DNA from: Phoronis australis
Lineage: Eukaryota; Animalia; Phoronida
Assembly: GCA_002633005.1 (NCBI GenBank)
Contig: NMRA01000045.1
Location: 861,552 to 925,551, forward strand
DNA: 64,000 nt
Direction of reading: 5' to 3'
Shown here: piece by piece, positions 32,639 to 64,000 of the stretch
Numbering within the stretch: the stretch's first letter is position 1
Layout of the letters: each line of letters opens with the position of its first letter
Position numbers and translations under genes: made by a program
Notes under the pieces: generated by a model
The model's database searches: none
Told to the model about the DNA's origin: nothing
The model's input: the letters and a program-made list of their open reading frames with translations, nothing else

Positions 32639-32941
32639 CTCTGTCGATGGCATGTGTACGACACCAGTACTTCGCCTTTTCTCCCTCAGCTTCCGTCTAT
32701 CCTTGGCAGATTTCCCTTTGAGCAAGTGATTCGGCCGGGAGCGCTTGTCTTTTGACCGGTTCCCGACGGCCCGGGACGGCGACTCGCGATCATCGTCTCC
32801 TACTGTTCTGTCACTGTCACCCTCCCCAGAGTCTCTATTTGGCGTGACCCTCGCGCGAACACCTCTTGTCTGTATTCGCCTATCCGTACTGTCGAATTCA
32901 TCATGATCCAAACTCTCCTGGCTCAGTGAATCCGAAGCCAT
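32639..32941 (-). CDS. PAWR: PRKC apoptosis WT1 regulator (Par-4), first coding exon
   Basis: aaaATGG start (MASDSLSQES...). Encodes KDRRKLREKRRSTGVVHMPSTE, matching the Par-4 NLS2/SAC core KRKLREKRRSTGVVNIP. Donor GAG|GTAAGT, 303 nt, phase 0. Confidence 0.92.
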
Positions 32942-50088: not shown

Positions 50089-50209
50089 CATCGTTTAAAT
50101 TTAGTCCACCGTCTGTAACTTTCGACAAAGACCGAGAACATTTGATGTTGCTGCCTCGAAGGAAAGGGTGCCGAAAACGAGCTAAACACTTCGCAATGGG
50201 CATCGCCAT
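50089..50209 (-). CDS. MRPS35: MRPS35 exon 1 (mitochondrial targeting peptide)
   Basis: aacATGG start. MAMPIAKCLARFRHPFLRGSNIKCSRSLSKVTD is Arg/Ser-rich and acid-poor, like a presequence. Phase-1 donor G|GTTGGT (an alternative phase-1 donor lies at 50110). Confidence 0.75.
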
Positions 50210-50278: not shown

Positions 50279-50524
50279 ATGGCGGACGAAAAACAGAAAA
50301 GTGCCTGTCTTAGACGGCACGATCAAATAAAACGGTGGGACGACTCAGACACATCGAAACAACCCACAGTGTTGAACAAAACGCAAACGAAAGTGAAATT
50401 TCATGATGGTTGCATATTTCTTGCGGCTTGTTCCTGTGGGGATGTTGAAGAAGTGACGACTCTTTTGAAAAGGGGTGCGGATATCAACACTGCAAATGTT
50501 GATGGGCTGACAGCGTTGCATCAG
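50279..50524 (+). CDS. PPP1R12A: Protein phosphatase 1 regulatory subunit 12 (MYPT1-like), canonical first coding exon
   Basis: MADEKQK...RHDQIKRW (MyPhoNE motif), KVKF (RVxF motif), then FLAACSCGDVEEVTTLLKRGADINTANVDGLTALHQ|GTACAG (ankyrin start), matching the MYPT1 N-terminus. The next exon is not in the window. The A/B/C paralog name is nominal for an invertebrate. Confidence 0.95.
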
Positions 50525-50692
50525 GTACAGTTCAAAAGTGGCTTTTATCTTGATCTTTGATTGCATTCTTGAACTACGCATTGGTTGATGCTCTAACATA
50601 CTTGCTTTTGCATTGAAATGAGCACTCGGTAACTTACTGTATTGTTCATTACCAGAAGAATTAGGCCGATGGTCGGACTACGGAGGACACCG

Positions 50693-50789
50693 TACTGGTC
50701 GGATATAGCGGTCCCTAATTTGGAGAACATGGCAATCACTGAATAATGGGCCTGTTCTCAAAAGCAGGGACCGCTTTATCCGACCAGTG
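50693..50789. mobile_element. Short MITE, family E
   Basis: actggtcggatatagcggtccc ... gggaccgctttatccgaccagt inverted repeat. Confidence 0.8.
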
Positions 50790-53700
50790 TTGGACGACAC
50801 ACTGCGGTCCCTGGTTTTAAGAACTAGACAGTCATTGAATATGGGGGTCCATTATTCAGTGGATCTCACAGGTTCTCTCTGACTATGTCAATGATCGCAG
50901 TCATTTGTAATGTTCTGTGATTTTTGACTACTGCAGATAAATTTAATCCTACTGCAAGTGCAATTTATTTGGCCACATGTTAAATCATCCCCTTGTCAGC
51001 CACACTTTCTTACAGTCAAGGTCAGAGCTTTTTGTTGGCCAGGTAACCTGTAATTTGTATATTTACTGTAAAAATTGAAACGAGATCATTGCAATTTTGG
51101 TGGTGTATTTACATTCTATTGTTCACAGATAATTGTTCCCATACATATCGCTTAGTATGCTTTATTCTAAGAATCAAAAAGTATATCGGTTGATCAGCTC
51201 CATTACAGTGCCATGGCCTATATGTCTATGACAGTATCATAGTATGACACCCACACCTGATGTATTGTATTGATCTGATCTAGAGCAGAATTTCTGCAGT
51301 CATAGCTTTTCTAAATTAACTGGATTACCACCTTACAAGCAATCACCCATTAATACCTGAGCGCTAATTCTACAAATGTTTTGTCAAAAAGCTGTGAAAC
51401 TGAGTGTTGATGCTCATTTTGAACGGAGCTGAATGTGGACTGGCTGAACTGTGTCAATTCAGTAATTAACATGTGATATTTTGTGGTCTGATTTTGAGAA
51501 CCAATTTCATTCACTGATTAGCAGGCATTATTCAACGAATGCCTGGTTTTCAAAATCAGGAACCACTGAAAGTCACTAATGCAACAGTCAACATATACAC
51601 AGGAGTCTACCTCAGTAAAAATCAGTTAATAGGACTCTTGATTAGTAGTCCCTGATTCTGAATATTATCAGTTTTATTAACCATTAATTACGGGCAGTAT
51701 TCAGGGATTTGCTAGTTTTCAAAATCAAGGACCAGTGAAAGTAACCGCTTCCAATGAAATTAGACTGACTGTGCATGTATTGATGAGTAGATACTGTAAT
51801 TGGATGGCTGGTAAATCAAGCTGAGGTTCAGATGGCCTGTCCAGACCTCCAGTTTGTCACTGTTGCAGGACTGCAATTTAGAGGAATTATCGCAGATCTG
51901 ACCTTAATGTTTGTCTGTTGCACGATATCATGATATTGAATCTACATCTCATTGTATGCGAAGCTTTATTATTTGCTGATCCTCTGGTTCTCAAAGTCAG
52001 TATTACTGTTGGCCCTCTGGTATAATCATCTGTGTGAATGCTCGAGATGTTGGATCACGGCTCAATCATAATTATTCTTTTGTGCAATAATAGAAACATA
52101 AGGCACGTGAAGCACTTGTTCTTATGTTCTGAAGGCTGGAGAACTTTGTGTGATTAGAGTTTGTAAGCTTTCTGTATGTGCCACGAGAAATTGATAACTC
52201 TATCCAAATCTGTACTGGCCTAGATTTATGAATGAAGAAATTGTACACTATTTAAACATGACTGTGAAGACAAATACACATTGTCATATTGCTGTCAAAT
52301 TTTACTCAGTTTAAACAGGATATTAGTAGGTCATAGTCGACTTCAAGTTTTATATCAGTCTCCTTGAGCTCTATGTACTTATTATTAGATTTATTCTTCA
52401 ATTGATTGTTGTCTTTAAGTTCTTTACTTTCTACCTCTTGAGTTATTATCGTGTGAACTTGATATTTTTGTCTTGGACATTGATGTACTTGTGAGCAATC
52501 GACCACTTCCTTGCTTGAGAGGTCAACTGATTTATTTAAAAAAAAAAATAGCCACATGATTGACTAATCAGATGGTATTGACTAATGAAATTGTGATGCC
52601 TGTCAAAAGTTTAGCTGAAAGAAAGTAGCCATTTCGAGATGATGTCAGACTTGGAAACCCATCTGATTTGGTGCGTGTTGCTGATGTTACAGATATTCGG
52701 TACAGCTTGCTGCAACTGAATTGTTTGATCGAGATAGTCTGCATCTATTAGCTGTAGGAATTCAACCGAATGTCTAGAAAATGAATACCATCCATCATTT
52801 TCGCAGTCTGCACTGTTACCTTTGCACATCAAAACAACTGTTAGTTCTTTACACGCCAGTTCAGTTTGCTAGTGGTTGAATGGCTCCCCTTCGAGTGTCC
52901 TAGTTTCACAGAACATTTTGTTGAGAAAGAATTATATATTTGAAAATGGTCGCTCTTGGGTCGTACAAGTAGTCATTTACCCTATTGGTTAGATCTAGAT
53001 GGAACCAGGTATTCTGTGTCAAGCACCAAGTTTATTTAATATGGAAATTCAGCGCGAAAATTGCTTCAACTCGACATATTCAGTTCCCAATCTATACAAG
53101 CTCTCCGTGCCAACGTGTTTTTGCTGGGTGCATGTGTTGGCGAGTGTTCACTATGCCTTGACATTTGTTCTGACCATCTCCCAACATTCCACTCCGTTCT
53201 TATCTAATATAATAACTAGCCGGAGCACACTGTAACACACTGCTTTACCTTATAAGTAGGCAGCGTTGGTAACAGGCCATCCAGCATGTATTCTGTACTA
53301 GGCGCTGTTTCCAGTTAGGAAGAACTGATCAAATTAATGGCAGTGACAGCAAAGGGATAGCTGATTTGACCTGGAAACAAGGTTCTGTGATGGGATTTCA
53401 GTTGAGAGGGACTTATCAATGGGTACTGATCTAGAGAAAATAGGATGGTTTTATCTTAGGCATTGAGTTTTGAATTGGGAAGAAATGATTGACTTTAGGA
53501 TAGGGTTAATAAATGGTAATAAAAGGGCAGATTTGACTTGAAAAGATTTGTTGAGTTTTGAGCTGGGAGAGGTGGTTGAATTAAAGGTAATGTCAGCAAA
53601 AATAAAATACAAGTTATGTTGGGTTTGGTTACGAATAGTTATAGACTGAACGTTTGACTGTCCTGTGGAGTATGATGCATATGAGTGTGTTTGAGTGTAT

Positions 53701-54815
53701 GAGTCAGTTATCATAAGGTTGTGCATTGACCTGACCTCTTGAACCTTTCCTAGTGCTGCATGGACACTGTTTTTGTTTGCAAATGTGCACTCAATGATGC
53801 TGGTGGATTGACTTCCTCAGACTGGTGTTGATGACTGCAGTACTCCACCTACGTGACTGGCTTGATATGTTCCTACTTATTACGTGTGGCAAATTAATGA
53901 TTTTAGGAGCATGCCCCCACGTCAATTACCCAGAAATAATTTCAGTGGTGCATTGTGATTGCTAAAGACGGGCTATCGGGCCCATTAAAATTGGAAGTGA
54001 AAAAGGAAAAAAAACAACAAACATGTCCCATAGGTCCTGCAAATTGACCCTTAGACTGAGGCCATGTGAGTCAATCCACTTTTTCTCTTGTTTTTCGAAT
54101 GGTCCCTGGTCGTGATGTAAACACTTCAATTGTAACACTCAACATGGCGAACAAAGTAAATTTGATGTTGAATTTTCTTGAAAAATAGTCTTCAAGAACA
54201 TGTTTCTTCAGTAGCATGTTCACTCTGTACACATTTGCAGCATTCCGACTTAGTTACTGTGTCGGCCTTTGTAGTAGTTAAAATTTGCCATTTCAGCAAT
54301 TTTTCAATTGTTAATGACTGTCTTGATGAGCTCCCTGCACACAGTGCACAGAATGTTCATATGATTTATGGACATTTTGATCGGGGTCATATTTCCTGTA
54401 TTTCTACCACAGATTTGTTTATTCTTTCCATTAAAATCAGTGTCAGTTTTATCTATCGGGTTGCATGAGTGACCGCTCGTTTCGTCATGTTCTACACTGG
54501 AGTAACTGCTCTATTAATGCTGTCATTTTAGCCTTTTTGTTTTGTGTTTTGTGGCATGCACAGCACATAGTCCCTTAGGTACAAGTCAGATGAACGGGAA
54601 GCTTTATCATGGAACCTCCGTACAAGTGCGTCCCCTTTTTATCTAATTCACTCTCAAAAGAGTTGGTATTCTAATTTTGTTGCCGCATCACAAGTTTATA
54701 GAGTTGAGTCTCTCTCTCTCTCTCTCCACTAAGGGCATACGATTCACGTGATATCTTTTACTCACAAGTATTTTTTCATGTAGCTCTACAGGTGTCGTCT
54801 TCCTCAAAGCTTTAA

Positions 54816-55484
54816 AGGCTCTTTCTTATACAGTTAACTCCGATATTTTCAAAGCTTCGATGCTAAATGTGGTTAACTGCGAAGTTCAGCATTTTGTATT
54901 TTCATCAGTTTCGAGCTTTGGAGTTAGTCAGATAGATAACTGGTTCAGCGACGTTATTGCAAGGAGGCACTAATATGACGGTTTGTGATGTGCCTTGGTG
55001 TTTTTGTCCTTGTCATTAAAAATTACAAGGACCTATCCCTCTTCGCAAATGGAAACTGGAATGTCAACTTCATATGGCGGTCACCGCTTGCCACATTGGA
55101 CGATGACGTACTGAAAAAATGACTCTTGAGTAGACTAACAGCTGATCTGAACAAAGGCGCATTGGTGGACCTCATTTTGCGTATACCTTCCATTTAGTGA
55201 TTTTTAAATGTAACAAATATACAGGTAATACCGTGGATAAACTGATACAGAATGTTTATACTGCCAAATTGATAAATATTATAAAACAATGTTAACAAAT
55301 ATTAACCAGTCACTCCCCAGTGTTGGCAAACCGCTGTCGATAATTCCGATGGCGTCAAAGTTAATGTTCCCATTGTAGCAAAAGCGCAAATCAACATCTA
55401 CTCTGTAGTTAACTTGGGCTGCTAACTTTGATTCAAGATCAAAGATAAGTGTTCTCATTGACCAGGAGCCTGTGGGAAGGCCTT
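54816..55484. mobile_element. Degenerate family B MITE, copy 3
   Basis: Ends aggctctttcttatacagttaactcc ... gggaaggcct. Internal aagttaatgttc and gttaact motifs are shared with family B. Confidence 0.5.
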
Positions 55485-58400
55485 TAATCATGAGAACCTG
55501 TTATGTTGTCATGGATGACTGAAATTTTAGAATTGCAATAGTCTCATACTGTTGCTGGCATTTGGCTGATGGTTATTTTTAGACATGTTGCATAACGGGA
55601 TCTGAACCCAATAAATCATCCCCTGTGTAGGTTTTATTTGCTTAACTTCCTGGGAGATGTTATCCTTACTTCTGATTGTGCAAATTTCACACTCTAGTCC
55701 AACATAAAGTCCAGGGCTGACACATGCCAAGTATATTCCTGGATGTTGTTGCCTTGGGCAATCCTCACTTACAGGGGTCCAGAAGTTTGAGCTGGTTCTC
55801 CAAATGCAGGACCCTTGTAACTGACAATTACCTTGTCGTGAGCACATGGGTGGCTCTTGTTCTTTGCCTCCTGTGTTTTGTTTAACTTTCAAAGTCTCTA
55901 TTTGCCATAAACAATACAGTGCGATGATGGAGACGTCCTTGAAATCACCTGTGCCCTTGTGAATACAGTATATTGCAAATTTTAGTTCTCAAAAATACAC
56001 AACTTGCTAAGCCTTTCAGTGCCACCTGGCAAAAATACCCATAGTATCCTACTTGGTTTGTGTTTGCTAGAATCAGTTGCCTGTGTTAATACCTACCCTA
56101 GTACCCTCTACCCCTTTCTGGCTGCTCAAAAATTTATTTTGTCAATGCCATTCCTTGGCTTAATGCCCAACCCTGCTTTTTTATTTCCTAGTTAAATACG
56201 CCCTGGACATTAGCCCAAATGAATACCGTGAATTCTAGGTAAGGAAATCTGAAAAATATAATAAGCTAGAAAATTAGTCATCAGCCTTGAAGTAAATGAA
56301 AACTCAAGACGACAAACATTTGTGTTTGTTTTTGTTTTTCTCTATGATTGGGAAACACTGTTGTACTAGTGCATCATTGCGGAATCAGGGATTTCTATTT
56401 TATTCTATTATCTTGAACTTTCTTTGCATCATACGGTAGTTTCTGTAATGTTGAATTGTTCATTTCATAGGTAGTGTTCTATCTAGCAGTTCTGAATGCT
56501 TTAGAGTTGGCGATTCCACTGGTGTTGTCAACCAGAGAATTTTCAGTTAGAAATCCTATTTTCAGAATACTGTCCTCATTGCCATTCTTGTTTCAGTCAC
56601 CTGTCATTTTTCCTTCTCTGCCATATTCCTCGTTGGGTTTCACCAGTGCTTGCTTACGCATTGCTTTCGTTTGATTGTAATCTTTGGTGATTTAGAGGTG
56701 AAAACAGTTTCTAAACCTAAGCTGTTTCAACCTGTGCTAATGTTCTCACAGCAGTGATGGGCCTTTATCCCACACCCATGAATGCTAGTGCAACAAAACA
56801 CAACATTCCCCCCCTATTGTCTGTTCTGTTTTCATTGCCGCAATCTGGAAGCATGTCGGTGGCCTGTTACCCATTTCATTGATCACGAGTGCTTCTTTAT
56901 CCTAGCTGCAACTATCGTTACCTACCGACTATAGCCTTGCTGCACTTGTTGTGATTTCTAAAACGGTGCGCATTCTCTTGTTTATTTTGGCCCATACCTG
57001 TGCAGGTTATTAACGTTGGCAATCTGGGTCAGTTCCTGTATGTTGTAACAGGAGACTTGTCGGAAGATGCATTACCCATGTTCCATTTGTCTTACATCGC
57101 ATAATTTCTTTTAGAAACTGGGCCTAGTTAAGTCTCTTGTTTCATGCACTGTACGCTGCTGCTTTGAATTTATCTAATATGTTAACCTATGCAGATGTAT
57201 CAGATGTGTCTTGTCTTGTTTAAAAAAAAAGAAAAAATTTGTATCGAGTTCCCGTTGCGCTTGATCTGTTTTTTTAAATTGTTCGTAACTGTTTAACTTG
57301 TAGTTACATTTCTAAGCTCCTTTTATTCATTGGCTAAAGTCACCTCGCTGTCAAAACTTGTTCGCAAGTTACAATAAAATCTCATCATAGGACACAATAT
57401 AACAGACAGGTGTAGTTTTTTCTCATTTTTCCATAAATGTTTTTAGTACCAGAATGATGCTTTACCATATGATATTATAGGTAATCATTTCAATTCCAAA
57501 AACCATAATCCATAAGATCTTTCTGTTCAAATAATAGAGAAACTCCAATATCCCAGTACCCCTCACAGACTCAAAAGAACAAAAATTTTGGATTTATAAA
57601 TAAGCTTAACACACTTGAACCTAATTTCAGTGATCCATTTTTGTTGTTGTATTAACGTATATTTATTCTACTTTTCGACAAACAAGCGTATCGTTTAGCG
57701 GATCTGGATCGCCTCTTTTACTTTCAGATTTATTTTCTACGTTATTTTCCAAAATTGGAATTCAAACATTCCAGTCACTGCAGTTAGTCACTCGCCACCA
57801 ATGTCTGCAACGTTTTGATACACCAGCTCTGTCTAATTCATTTGAACCCCTTTCTAGTGTTTCGTTCAGGTACAAGCTTTTCAATTTGTTTTTCAAACTC
57901 AATTCCCTGTAAGCAGTCAATTTCCGTGTATATCGCAGTGTATCAAGCTCTTGAAACGAGAGGTGAATCATCCTTCGAAGAATGAAGTGTCTTCCATAAA
58001 TAGCTGGTCTTCAGTAAACACTGTTTTGTTTGAAACTAGTAAAATTAAACAGGGCTCAGTTTCACTGTTTGGGGCTCTAGCTTGAAGACTGAGAGAATCA
58101 CCCAGGTTTTCAAGTGCTCTCAACAGTAGTTTTGGTTCCTGTTAAATTGATAATGGGCCAATTATTTGAAAAGAATATTTACCTGGGGTGTTGATGGTGA
58201 TAGTTATGCAATCATGTCTATAGGAAATGTAACCCATTTTGTAAAGATTTGGTTGGAAGCTCTTCATGTGAATAAAGGTGGGCAATAATAAAGTGCTATT
58301 GAGTTGATGTTATAAAACCCATTGATCTCCCTAGTTTCAGGTGCCTGTGCTATAAATTATCAGAAAGGCCCTTTTCCTCTAACATTAAAGCCTCTGTTTT

Positions 58401-59975
58401 AGGGTAGTGTCCGTCAGTGGCAAACCTGTTTTCCGTCTGCAAAAATGTAGATTTGTACGGAAATTTGGCTTGTAGTTTGCAAGTACGTAAAACCAGTTAA
58501 AAATATGCAAATTCGAAGCAGATTGTTTACCTAGTTGTTTCTCACTTAGTAATAAGCTAATGGTAGAAACGGAAGATTTTTAAATTAGAAATTAAAAAAT
58601 TATATATTCATACTATTTTAGTTAAAAAACGGGAGTTCCGAAGTCGGAAACTTGCTCTGATTCATTTGAAGTATTGCAAGAGAATTGACGAAGCGCACGG
58701 CTTCTATCGATATTCGTCATCACCGACCTAAACGCCTTGTTTTCTTGCGCACGTGGTGTCCTCACACTGTTCGTGACATGGCGAGACATTGGCAACAGTC
58801 GAGGTTTTTTGGCAGGCTGTACGGTACTTTTGTGAATAATTAAGAACATGTCATCTAGTGTAAAACATTGTTAAGTAAGGTCTTAAGCACTTTCTGCAGA
58901 AATGTTTTTGGTTTAAGAAATGAACATAACTTTAGACTTATCACTATTCATTGTAGAGACTGCAGTTGAGCATTCCTACAGTCGCGTTACTATTAATTGT
59001 GAAGTAAACTTGAGCTGTTAAACATCGACATTATTGGGAAACGCCTTTTTGAACACTATGCCTTTAGACACAGTTGTAGTTTGGTGATGCTAATAAAGCA
59101 ATATACCCCAGTTCAAAGTCAAGGCACCCACAGACATCTGTGTTGTTGCCTTTTCTGGTGGAATGGCTTTACAACCATACCAGCCATGTGGTCAGATGAC
59201 TGACCAGCTACAAGACGGGATGTCACTGACCTATTCATTATAGGGCTGTGATCTGCAGGAAGTCTTTAAAGTCCAGGTGTGTGTAGAAACACTCTTGAAT
59301 CTGTTAGTCTCCAGCTGCTGATAGAAAGTTCTCATTTACTTTGCTGAGGGATGCTTTTAGTGAATTGCCCATGTACTGGCTCAGTAAACTGAATAGCTAT
59401 TGCTAAAATGACATGGGCTGTTGAACAGTTTAACAGAAGGTACTAGAATGTTTTGAGTGCATTTTTGAAAGACTGTATGGTTCAGTGACAGTGGACCAAT
59501 GTAGTAATCCTGTTGCATCAGCCTGAAACTTGCTACAATGCTTAGTCTGTTCCCTTTTGGTATTCACTGTGAATTGCTGTGGTATAACTGAGTTCTTACG
59601 ATTGTCGGCTCTTGTTCATAATAGCACAATTTGGCTCGAAAGTCTGTAGATCTGTCAGTGTTCCCTGATGCAATGATCAGTGTTTTCCACAACCTGTTTT
59701 GACTCGTCGCAGTAACGATTTTACTTCAGCCTTGACGAGTTAGGCTTACCTGTGTCGTTTGAAAACCTTATTCAACATACTTGAACTTATGAGGTTTTAG
59801 TTATTCATACTCTTCGTACAAATTCGCACTTTTTTGACTTTCGGCACCTCTTCAGTGCATTTATTCCAAGACTTTACAAACAGTCCACCTACGGTAGTGA
59901 TACAAATTTCTGACGGTGTTTGTGGATTTTATAATTCTGGTGGAGTTAAAATTTTCTGAACGATTGGGTCCATGT

Positions 59976-60220
59976 CAGGGCTCGACATAACGAGCTGCAG
60001 GTCGCATTTGCGACCTGAAATTTGGAAATGCGAGCTGAGATTTTTGTCAGCTCGTATCAAGTCGCAAAATGCGACCTGGAATTTCCAACGAATGCGAGCT
60101 GAGTTTTTACACTTCTCAACAGATACCTGGCAAATACAAAGCAGCTCTTGTTAATCCGACCGTTATTTGGTCGCTGCCAAATCCAAGTTCAAAACAACAC
60201 TANAATAACGTCGAGCCCTG
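59976..60220. mobile_element. hAT-like MITE with an 11-bp TIR and 5-bp TSD
   Basis: CAGGGCTCGAC ... GTCGAGCCCTG flanked by CATGT on both sides, with internal tgcgacctg and tgcgagctgag subrepeats. Confidence 0.85.
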
Positions 60221-62773
60221 CATGTGTTGCCAAACTTTATACATTGTTGCTTTTACCACAAACAGCTGTTCCTTCATTGTATCTTGAAGTTACTCTCTGT
60301 TCTAACTAAATTAGTCAAATTGAGTTGCATTGTTTTCAAACTCTCCTTCTGTTCGGTTAATGGGCATTCCTGTCTTTAATTAGGGGAAAGTCTTACATCT
60401 CCAGCCAGACCTCCTTGCCCTACACTGGGAAGTTGCACCTGGGAAGTTGCACCCTAGTACACCCAAACGCATGTGGTGCTGGTTGGATGTCGTTAAGAAG
60501 GTTTGACGTCAGCCCTGCTGACCATTACTGCTCGTTGGCTGACATTCTCGCCTTAATAACTTCATTAACTCTACACCTAGCAATACTATGTTAACATTGG
60601 CTCGTTATGCAACCTGCACTGGGCGACTTGTTAAGAATTTAGGTATGGTTAAGTAATTAATACTACCAGGCGTCTTTTTGGAGTTACTTCCCCTGTTTCT
60701 AAGTTCCTATCTCTCACCGGTTTCTCTTGAAAACAAGAAAACTTGTATGTTTCGCAATGTTGCCCAGTGGCAACATGTAAAGTTGTGGTTTGTCGCTGGG
60801 TCAGTTATGGTAATGATGAATGACAGTTCTTGGGTTAAAGTAAGCTCCACAGAGGGCATTCATCCACTTTCGACAGGTGAAGGTTTTGTTTATAAGCCTC
60901 AACAGGAGACTTATGATGTCATCCATATTTTTGCTTCTAACCTTTTTCTTATTAAAAGTTCATGAGATGAGAGCCTTTCATCCCGGTCTTAATTTATCAG
61001 TCTCAGGTCATTGGGCACTATTGTCACCAGATATTTATGAATGCCCTGCTAATGTGTCATTGGTAATATGTAATGAATTACAGGTAGTTGATTATTATTT
61101 ATATCCCTTGACTGAATGGAGCATGCATTGCTTGACGTCTCATTAGTGGCATTCCCATCTGTTTTGAAATCATTGATGAAATATTTCAGGAAAAACATAC
61201 GTGGGATTAATTCTACAAACGGTCATGTCATGAATACCGGAAAGTTATATCTCCCCTGTTGGCAGACAGTAACACTACACACTTGTACACAATCAGTGCA
61301 GCACCAGGCATGTGTCAGCTGCAGTGATTTTGTGGCAAAAATCGGGCATAACGTGCCCACATTTTTAGAACCAGTTTAATGCCCCGTTATTCAGTAGAGA
61401 AACCTGGTTCTCGAAATGCAGGCATGCTATATCCGACTATTACCGATTTTGTTATATAGATAATGATCAGAATTTTAATTGCATCGACAAACTATGAAGG
61501 TCGTGAGTAATTCTCCCCGTATTAATCCATCGAAATTTGGTGAACACTCAGAAACCTGGCAAATTTGTGTCCCAATGCAAATATTTTCTCATTATAAGTC
61601 TTCATTGGATTGTTTTCACATTGGAACAACATCAATATGTAGTTTTGTTAATAACTATCAAAAGTGTCCCAAACTGGTGGTTTTATGAGTTAAGTATTGA
61701 TGTCTATGTCAAAACTCCTTGAAGGTAATGCAACAGATGTATACGGGCATAGGATACAGATTGTAAGTGAATAGGCATATATATTCATATTCATATATCA
61801 GTCTCTTCTAATATGAAATATCATTGGGTGTACTCATCCTGGCTTTACCCCCAGGGTGTTGGTATTGAGAAACTCAAATATCATGGTGTTGGTGGAGCGC
61901 GGTATGTGAAAATGAAATTTTTGAAAAGGCAGGTTACGTGTTTACTCGAATTGCCAATTTTAGGAGGTTGCATTTCTGTTGATCGCGTGCAATAAGCATG
62001 TAAAACCAGCTGAATATTCATAGTGTTCCGTTTATTTGCCCCCTGATATGTAATATCGTGCTTAGAGCTGAAAATAATTTCAAAGTGATGTACCTAGATA
62101 CTAATAAAAATGAACTAAAATACGGAATGTATAACTTTGGGGTGGACATTTAGCAGACGGACTATGGTATGAAAAATCAAGACAAAAACTGACAATAGGA
62201 TATGACAATGTTTCTTGATAAATGGCCCCATTGTGGCATTAATGCTTTTGATAACAGTGGTGGCAATTGTGTTATTCCTTCTGCTTAGGGATAGGGTGCC
62301 AGATGATCTCTGACCATGGTCAGATATAGTCCCACTGGGCCACTAAAGGGATTATCATTCCTTGTCAACTGGCAACATCAAGTTTAATGCGATTATCCTG
62401 GGGCAGTGGATTGGAGAAGTGTATTTTGTATACAATTATCCAGTGGTTGTCACTGTCTGACTGAACTGTCTGACTGGTTCTTGTTTACTGCTGCCACTGC
62501 AGAAACTGGAGCCCTGCAATTGCTCCTCGTTTTGCTGTGTTATAATATAGCATTACAGTCATTTTACTTGATCTAGGAGGGTTGATACAACATAGCTGAC
62601 TGATGAGTGGTTTCCTTTGTTTAATTCTATTGTGAATGGGTCGTTGCTGATGACTTCTGTCTACAACACAGACAGTGTAGTTGGCTAATCCTGTGTGCTT
62701 GACTGTGGATCACTGCAGAAAGATCCGGACTTGGAGATAGGATTTTTCAGCCTGTTAAGTCTACCTGTCGAAA

Positions 62774-63937
62774 ATGGGGTGTACTTGTTCAAAGCAATCA
62801 ACTCGTAGGAGTACAAGTAAACAGGAAAAGGTGTCTGGAGAAAATGTCTCTGAAGTCGTTTCTATTGAGGAGGCGGCATGTGATAAGAGGATGGGTGACA
62901 AGCTGGAACGCTTGGAGACTGATATATGTGGAAATAAGATGAGAAATGAGGCGAAGGATGGCTTAGGCAACAAGGAGATTTCACTGAATGTGGACGATGT
63001 TAGGGCAGTCTATGTCAAATGTTTGCCAGACACAGATGTGAGTCCTGAGATAGAATGCTGTGGGAGTACACTGTCGAATAGCTTGGAGACAGTGTGCCTT
63101 TTGAATGACAACTGTGAGGGTAGTCAGCATGAACTAAATGAGTTGTCTTCACAGAATGATATTTGCTACGCCAGTGTTCATCAATGTCCCAATATTTCAA
63201 CTGAAGAGTCGTGCAGTTCAGGTCATAATGGACAATATATGCCCCCATTTGCAGCCTGTGAGATATCAGAACAGAGTGCTAAGTTCACGGTGCCCCCGTC
63301 AATAACGTTCTCTCTGGTTGGCTACGAGAGCGGGAACGGCAACCTTGTGGCGACTGCCAGTGTCAACCCAGTTGTGTATGCGTCTCTACCAGTAGTCATT
63401 ACCGTCTCTACCAACAGTACTGATAAAGATGAAGATGAAAAAGGAGAAATGGTTGGCCAGTGCCAAGCACCCCAGAATAATGGAGTTGATATTACTACTG
63501 ATAACAACGAGGAAATCGGAGACAATAACCCGATGGATTACAAACTGAATTCACTAACATGGGATGTTTCTGCTGATGATGTTACCAGCACAACCTATGT
63601 AATCACGGAAACTGACTTGAGCTTTAATGTTGATTTGCACAATTTTGATGCTCCGCCAATACAGGGCATTTTGAAAACTAGGGCTCAGTCATCAAATTTT
63701 GCAAGACCAAAGAAGCGTGTTAGTTTCCCCGATGTTTTGGAAGATGTCGTCTGTATCGATACCCTCTCTGTGGGATCGATGTACGAAGAGGAGGATATTG
63801 GTGGTGTCATGGCCAATGGCAGCCATATTTGTGGCAGCCATGTTGATTGGAAAGATGCGTTAAGGTATTGGCAGTTAGACGGTTGTCCAGATCTGGATCG
63901 TGGGGTTGGTGACAGTTACCTGTGTCCTCGTCATCAG
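62774..63937 (+). CDS. 388-codon exon, probable alternative first coding exon of PPP1R12/MYPT (acylation signal, SILK and RVxF motifs, degenerate ankyrin segment)
   Basis: Uninterrupted frame from AAAATGG, with an in-frame TAA upstream at 62756. MGCTCSK N-terminus, GILK at 63665-63676, KKRVSF at 63710-63727, ending CAT CAG|GTAGTG. Probably absent from the ORF track because no stop occurs before the window end. Confidence 0.75.
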
Positions 63938-64000
63938 GTAGTGTTTGATGATCTTGTTTCTGCTCTTGTTCTAAGTGTGTGTTCTATAACTAGGTGTTGT

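Follow-up and report, generated by a model that had tools for sequence, protein, structure and literature searches.

The window, a stretch of 64,000 nt of the Phoronis australis genome, contains the first coding exon of an MYPT gene, the adjoining part of its first intron and, inside that intron, a long stop-free reading frame on the same strand. The features of the host gene and of the frame are as follows:

50279–50524, plus strand: canonical MYPT (PPP1R12A/B-type) coding exon 1, 82 codons
50315–50338, plus strand: MyPhoNE motif RHDQIKRW of exon 1, recognized by sequence
50390–50401, plus strand: RVxF motif KVKF of exon 1, recognized by sequence
50525–64000, plus strand: MYPT intron 1, continuing beyond the window end, with exon 2 outside the window
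62740–62773, plus strand: leader, with acceptor-like TTTTTCAG ending at 62750, a TAA and the Kozak context GAAAATGG
62774–63937, plus strand: candidate alternative first exon, 388 codons, proposed from the stop-free frame and its motifs

Bioinformatics analysis revealed that exon 1 (50279–50524) encodes MyPhoNE, KVKF, ankyrin repeat 1 and the beginning of repeat 2. MyPhoNE was placed by its position in human MYPT1, as given in the accessible part of the source (PMC9367544). The exon matches the MYPT1 structure 1s70_B (phmmer E-value, 2 × 10−32) and, among the best 120 of 1149 matches, is 66–73% identical to mollusc and annelid PPP1R12. It ends in the phase-0 donor CAT CAG/GTACAG, and its junction with exon 2, which reads ACIDDNLDMV, is present in RNA (20 reads in run X1 and 25 in run X2). 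MyPhoNE, the RVxF motif, the ankyrin repeat and the splice to the ACIDDN exon together identify the host as an MYPT/PPP1R12 gene, and, judged by its sequence, it is a lophotrochozoan-type MYPT. In a tree of 33 exon-1 peptides, exon 1 of the window lies on a long branch and is weakly grouped with the annelid Owenia (86/77), in line with a lophotrochozoan-type animal that lacks close relatives in the databases. The letters of the RNA reads differ from the window at a high share at 50158, 50305, 53354 and 55134, of which 50305 lies within exon 1; these differences are probably alleles.

The phase-0 intron after TALHQ (CAY CAG/GT) is found at the identical place in all 31 animal MYPT exon-1 loci recovered from metagenome contigs (L001–L031). 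Intron 1 is longer than 13 kb here, as compared with 0.8–7.9 kb in four complete metagenome loci. A search of both strands with a read-derived 14-mer found no exon 2 within the window, and tblastn with six full-length homologues returned exon 1 as the sole match. Exon 2 thus lies outside the window, which places the frame within intron 1 in sense orientation, and an exon must end in phase 0 to be joined to exon 2.

On the minus strand, the first coding exon of PAWR/Par-4, LREKRRSTGVVHMPS, was located at 32941–32639, with the donor GAG/GTAAGT, so that PAWR and MYPT stand head-to-head, 17 kb apart. Human PAWR and PPP1R12A are neighbours as well, arranged in tandem, so that the two genes may have been linked since ancient times. 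In PMC7005721, LREKRRSTGVVHLPS is the sequence of a honeybee peptide annotated as PRKC apoptosis WT1 regulator. Farther along the minus strand, at about 1330–1114, an acidic Ser/Thr-rich exon-like stretch with the acceptor TTGCAG and the donor AG/GTAAAT is possibly the next PAWR exon.

The frame starts with ATG at 62774, 12.25 kb downstream of exon 1 and on the same strand, in good agreement with the sequence-only reading, which had placed it about 12 kb after exon 1 on the PPP1R12 strand. The 1164-nt stop-free frame described there, with 388 codons up to 63937 and MGCTCSK at its beginning, was found as described. The frame does not close at 63937, however: it continues without a stop for 409 codons, up to where the window ends, and the '388-codon exon' is thus an interpretation. 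At the base composition of the frame, about 2 × 10−8 frames of such length are expected by chance in 64 kb, and the next longest stop-free stretch in 50531–62700 has 153 codons. The DNA had been described as AT-rich; its GC content is 37–40% around the frame and 45% within it. The N-terminal motifs are separated from the PP1-docking motifs by an acidic low-complexity spacer of about 290 residues. Within this spacer, residues 191–213 (63344–63412) form a hydrophobic Val/Pro-rich patch (hydropathy 1.7), where PVVIT loosely resembles the calcineurin docking consensus PxIxIT, one residue short. A single-sequence fold of residues 308–409 was uninformative (mean pLDDT 33.5).

The candidate exon, which lies between exons 1 and 2 in sense orientation, combines a start codon, preceded by an in-frame stop, with a GT donor whose phase matches that of exon 2. 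The upstream in-frame stop and strong Kozak context that had been claimed are both present: a TAA occupies 62756–62758, and the ATG at 62774 stands in the context GAAAATGG, with A at −3 and G at +4. Exon 1 spliced into 62751 would be out of frame, so that a separate start or a non-coding leader exon is required. A cassette exon spliced from exon 1 was rejected for the whole frame, since the ATG has an in-frame stop before it and the closest acceptors would shift the frame. No CpG-rich promoter was found ahead of the frame (observed/expected ratio of 0.26–0.66 vs. 1.17 at exon 1), and no pile-up of beginnings or ends of RNA reads at the frame was seen among the matches listed.

Two groups of short motifs were identified in the predicted protein:

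62774–62794, plus strand: MGCTCSK, with predicted N-myristoylation (Gly2, Ser6, Lys7) and predicted palmitoylation of Cys3/Cys5, from sequence
63665–63751, plus strand: predicted PP1-docking cassette, with GILK at 63665–63676, KKRVSF at 63710–63727 and VV at 63746–63751

MGxxxS/K is the N-myristoylation consensus, and both this consensus and nearby Cys residues stand at the very start of the frame, as would be expected of an acylated protein. In codon shuffles, where the patterns of all tests, both for and against, were picked after the sequence was seen, a start of the MG..C..S type appeared in 765 of 683,240 and an MGxxxS[KR] start in 393 of 683,240. Gly2, Ser6, Lys7, Cys3 and Cys5, together with the net charge of +4 of residues 1–20, fit a predicted dual acylation, which is known at Gly2/Cys3 in Fyn, according to the available part of the report (PMC2132482).

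The docking motifs occupy residues 298–301 (GILK), 313–318 (KKRVSF) and 325–326 (VV), and the sequence-only reading had been accurate on all of them as well as on MGCTCSK, giving VV as shortly after RVSF. The distance between GILK and RVSF fits the SILK-RVxF spacings typical for PP1 regulators. Here, [SG]ILK is N-terminal to RVxF, and the flanks are basic before and acidic after it, which is the arrangement of SILK+RVxF regulators as outlined in the accessible text of two sources (PMC3792071, PMC4999541). Among the shuffles, SILK followed by RVxF was found in 194 of 683,240, and in 73 of 683,240 with the hydrophobic pair added. PP1 docking by GILK, RVSF and VV, predicted from these motifs, fits the sequence. 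Both motif sets, MGCTCSK and GILK..RVSF..VV, are rare in shuffles; neither the motif set nor the exon end at 63937 is likely to have arisen by chance. The presence of a PP1-docking cassette inside a PP1-regulator gene is a coincidence for which an alternative first exon of MYPT would account.

The end of the candidate exon is defined by two adjoining features:

63932–63943, plus strand: candidate donor CAT CAG/GTAGTG, phase 0, assigned from the CATCAGGT match and T change points
63938–64000, plus strand: 21 further stop-free codons (VVFDDLVSALVLSVCSITRCC), the start of an intron if the donor is used, or coding if the frame reads through

On the plus strand of the window, CATCAGGT occurs only at 50519, at the end of exon 1, and at 63932, which bears out the claim that CAT CAG/GTA at 63937 has the codons and phase 0 of the end of exon 1. 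An in-frame CAT CAG GTA was obtained in 21 of 20,000 codon shuffles; HQ/GT was found anywhere in 15,480 of 683,240 shuffles, and 20–100 residues after RVxF in 363 of 683,240. With an approximate weight matrix, the donor at 63937 scores 2.01 and the read-proven donor of exon 1 scores 1.92, the two being equally weak, and 22 of 850 GT sites of the intron score as high. The donor GTAGTG has no G at +5 and ranks second among the 100 GT sites of the frame, the best being GAT/GTGAGT at 63037, in phase 0.

In another reading, the alternative first exon would mostly end at one of two phase-0 donors farther upstream, at 63037 (following residue 88) or 62830 (following residue 19), and would yield an anchored MYPT without a docking motif, PP1-free or competing. 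In addition to the rank of the 63037 site, this is consistent with the few frame-region reads, which fall in 62568–63535, and with a human MYPT1 form without the PP1-binding N-terminus, described in the accessible part of PMC9367544. It would, however, leave unexplained why the frame stays free of stops for 300 more codons and carries an ordered docking cassette in them, and the reads of run X2 reach beyond 63037. An earlier donor is therefore regarded as very improbable.

The composition of the DNA changes at the proposed exon end. T content rises from 26.5% before 63937 to 49% (31 of 63) after it (p = 1 × 10−4), no 63-nt window of the frame contains more than 24 T, and the eight best T change points in 63600–64000 all lie at 63937–63944; the four-letter change point is at 63714, away from the donor. 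With coding models of order 0 and order 1, the scores of the last 63 nt are lower than those of any window of the frame and fall inside the intron range, and the order-2 model is ambiguous; the 75 nt before the donor are also poor as coding (0.0, −2.2 and −9.0). The read-through peptide is hydrophobic, so that the rise in T could have that cause.

If the frame reads through 63937, it would be a nested same-strand gene for an N-acylated PP1 regulator, possibly a very diverged intron-less or partial MYPT duplicate. Since the read-through HQ-VVFDD is in register with HQ-ACIDD of the spliced message, an unspliced MYPT-derived gene is a live rival. Over five residues, the likeness of VVFDD to exon-2 starts is equalled by only 2 of 841 windows of the intron and 3 of 367 of the frame, and HQxxxDD was found in 1,176 of 683,240 shuffles. 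The openness of the frame to the window end, the T-rich third positions (15 of 21 in the read-through), the ambiguous order-2 score and the weakly ankyrin-like tail described below point in the same direction. On the other hand, the likeness to exon 2 has faded by residue 21 (score −3.4), a chance GCA to GTA change is required to create the donor, and 21 stop-free codons are common by chance. The order-0 and order-1 models place 63938–64000 in the intron, the frame has no ankyrin match in Pfam or PDB, and a processed copy landing in its own intron would presumably be rare a priori. Taken together, a nested gene is considered unlikely.

The part of the frame between the docking cassette and the donor resembles exon 1:

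63764–63862, plus strand: 33 residues in gap-free alignment to ankyrin repeat 1 of exon 1, with 9 identities, a possible decayed copy

In this comparison, RVSF aligns with KVKF, and the peptide after RVSF with the exon 1 sequence after KVKF. The score of the tail against ankyrin repeat 1 was reached by 4–12 of 600 shuffles in each of 12 settings (p = 0.01–0.03) and by no upstream window of the frame. Comparison of the tail with exon 1 by hhalign gave P 0.077 and a probability of 0.7%; an exon-1 HMM was not significant on the tail (136 of 1000 shuffles), nor was homology of the frame to exon 1 at the DNA level (80 of 500 shuffles), and no ankyrin match for the frame was found in Pfam or PDB sequences. 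The alignment is thus a hint that the candidate exon is an old exon-1 duplicate. The sequence-only reading had not included the encoding of ankyrin repeat 1 by exon 1, the similarity of the tail to a decayed copy or the resemblance of the read-through to exon 2.

RNA runs were matched by species label, their tissues not being given, and 18–19% of each raw-read run was read. Mean depth over the frame in runs X1, X2 and X3 was 0.26, 0.45 and 0 on the sense strand, as compared with an intron background of 0.14, 0.24 and 0.01 (21 of 30 bins, leaving out three promoter/exon-1, three repeat and three frame bins) and with about 14, 21 and 2 over exon 1. The depth of the frame is close to the intron background; thus, in these samples, it reaches no more than about 2% of exon 1 and resembles unspliced intron. 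In 63536–64000, depth was zero in all four runs. The earlier proposal that the frame is spliced to exon 2 came with a call for a junction from 63937 to the ACIDxN exon in RNA-seq data. Its premises, namely the host gene, the phase-0 ACIDDN junction and the position in intron 1, hold, but the only reads of the frame are at intron level, and no junction from 63937 to exon 2 was present among the matches listed in three RNA runs. Within the same intron, a dispersed repeat at 59975–60202 is covered about 25–55-fold by RNA reads of both strands, which have many mismatched letters and loose ends, and smaller repeats with similar RNA reads lie near 57470–57748 and 61348–61383.

By analogy, restricted expression of the candidate exon is plausible, because the intron-1 start of human PPP1R12A is rare overall and accounts for a quarter of transcripts in testis, according to the part of the source available (PMC9367544). 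Alternatively, the frame may be an exon or gene that was functional in the past and has since fallen silent, or it may be a relic of recent origin, unexpressed and open by chance, which would agree with expression no higher than the intron background, with the want of a CpG-rich promoter and with the absence of a detected homologue. Such a relic would nevertheless have kept 409 codons without a stop or frameshift, despite having drifted to about 27% identity with its likely source, and the motifs at both ends are intact; we consider it improbable.

Searches for homologues of the frame gave no confirmed match. None of 5234 candidates among proteins of 680–2000 residues matched the whole frame, and none of 64 matched its last 134 residues; Pfam, Rfam and PDB sequences yielded no family or match, and the best score of an Atlas search was 0.77, below the useful level. 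Of the pattern matches in metagenome and viral contigs, 0 of 53 and 0 of 1, respectively, were confirmed. A transposon or endogenous-virus frame inserted in the intron would be intronic and orphan, as this one is. However, the frame is single-copy in the window and has no repeats around it, it belongs to no Pfam family and has no match in viral or metagenome contigs, and it does not gather many diverged RNA reads on both strands as the intron repeats do. An origin of this kind is highly improbable, the least probable of the readings considered.

Conservation of the exon in intron 1 of relatives had been proposed as a check. The metagenome set comprised 44 loci, 31 of them with MYPT exon 1 and four (L006, L010, L015 and L022) spanning a complete intron 1; none of these four, all from distant relatives, contains a sense ATG frame of more than 94 codons or an HQ/GT site in the intron, and none has such an exon. 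All compared relatives are distant, with exon 1 at most 73% identical. In addition, the X1 isoforms of all 10 mollusc species examined begin with the normal exon 1. The same beginning is seen in all 207 proteins that have an ACID-type junction, a set that was collected using exon 1 and is hence biased. The results for the four introns and the 10 mollusc isoforms indicate that the exon is not general to lophotrochozoans, and it appears lineage-restricted.

Based on these data, the frame is best read as an alternative first exon of MYPT that joins exon 2 in phase 0 and would give an N-acylated, membrane-tethered MYPT, to which we assign a probability of about 0.6. The exon is probably lineage-restricted, likely tissue-restricted as well and likely an old duplicate of exon 1, and its product would be devoid of MyPhoNE and of an intact ankyrin repeat 1. 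The earlier interpretation is thereby supported in part: the host gene, position, phase and motifs stand, but the joining transcript was not seen and none of the relatives examined was found to have the exon.

As a working mechanism, transcription would begin within intron 1, from a promoter of its own or with a non-coding leader, in an unsampled tissue or stage, and the donor at 63937 would join exon 2, so that CPRHQ takes the place of TALHQ and completes ankyrin repeat 2. Myristate on Gly2, palmitate on Cys3/Cys5 and basic residues would anchor the N-terminus, and the acidic spacer of roughly 290 residues would keep the docking cassette off the membrane. KVKF, MyPhoNE and ankyrin repeat 1 are the three PP1 contacts of MYPT listed in the accessible part of PMC9367544. 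Loss of exon 1 removes all of them; the candidate would restore docking by other motifs, PP1 being bound by SILK, RVxF and the hydrophobic pair in place of MyPhoNE, KVKF and ankyrin repeat 1. The changed docking would loosen the preference for myosin light chain, and the serine within RVSF (Ser317) could let a basophilic kinase switch docking. The product would be a PP1 adaptor tethered to the membrane and built on the MYPT body, probably with a weaker bias towards myosin light chain. In evolutionary terms, an old tandem duplication of exon 1 may have kept RVxF, a decayed ankyrin repeat and the HQ/GT end, the N-terminus being newly gained. The whole picture, in which a single MYPT gene gives rise to two PP1 holoenzymes depending on the promoter used, and an exon-1 duplicate with an acyl anchor, an acidic tether and a kinase-switchable SILK-RVSF cassette turns the shared ankyrin and coiled-coil body into a phosphatase bound to membranes, probably in germ cells or another restricted tissue, is put forward tentatively.

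MYPT determines the place and the substrates of PP1 in actomyosin control. If the proposed exon is real, it would provide a natural test of the extent to which substrate choice depends on MyPhoNE and ankyrin repeat 1, as well as a clear example of a docking surface rebuilt from short motifs after exon duplication; as the exon appears lineage-restricted, the reach of such findings is limited. Acylation that depends on the choice of first exon is already known, and so are MYPT transcripts that start in intron 1. An N-acylated MYPT isoform, or its combination with a replaced PP1-docking cassette, was not found in the accessible portions of the open-access literature.

The closest known system is MYPT1/PPP1R12A (1s70), as the candidate belongs to the same gene, would share exon 2 onward with ankyrin repeats 2 onward, and keeps RVxF and the HQ end. 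In contrast to MYPT1, it has neither MyPhoNE nor an intact ankyrin repeat 1, and it adds SILK, the hydrophobic pair, a serine within RVxF and a predicted N-terminal acylation signal. The distance from RVxF to HQ is 68 residues, compared with 39 in the canonical exon 1, and the candidate first exon has 388 codons, compared with 81–86 in homologues. Human MYPT1 delta-N (promoter P2, exon E1+) likewise starts in intron 1 and is spliced to exon 2, being rare overall and testis-restricted, as the accessible part of the source describes (PMC9367544). Exon E1+ is non-coding there and removes PP1 binding, whereas the candidate is coding and would bring its own docking cassette and membrane anchor (PMC9367544, same part).

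The known membrane-bound relatives of MYPT are separate genes, and the human intron-1 start merely deletes PP1 binding. In MYPT3 and TIMAP, the prenylation site is C-terminal. MYPT3/PPP1R16A and TIMAP/PPP1R16B resemble the candidate as MYPT-family PP1 regulators with a lipid anchor, being prenylatable according to the accessible text of PMC5087845. Unlike these separately encoded proteins, the candidate would acquire N-terminal fatty acylation through exon choice.

Further PP1 regulators of the SILK+RVSF type are inhibitor-2 and RIF1. Their homology to the candidate, like that of KNL1/Spc105, is limited to the motifs, and none of them is an ankyrin-repeat MYPT. In KNL1/Spc105, as in the candidate, [S/G]ILK precedes RVSF in a disordered region, and phosphorylation of the RVSF serine can switch PP1 binding off; the same motif pair of KNL1 binds PP1 via RVSF, and phospho-mimics cut binding by more than 70%, as stated in the part of PMC2845083 at hand.

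The proposed change of address also has parallels in signalling proteins that gain a fatty-acid anchor, and with it a new location, through the promoter or first exon that is used. The isoforms c-Abl 1b and AKAP18 alpha are acylated through an alternative N-terminus. The third parallel is BTK-C, an isoform with an alternative N-terminus, whose palmitoylation is named in the title of a work cited in PMC13082882. In comparison with these three, the swap of first exons in the candidate would replace the enzyme-docking surface as well as the address.
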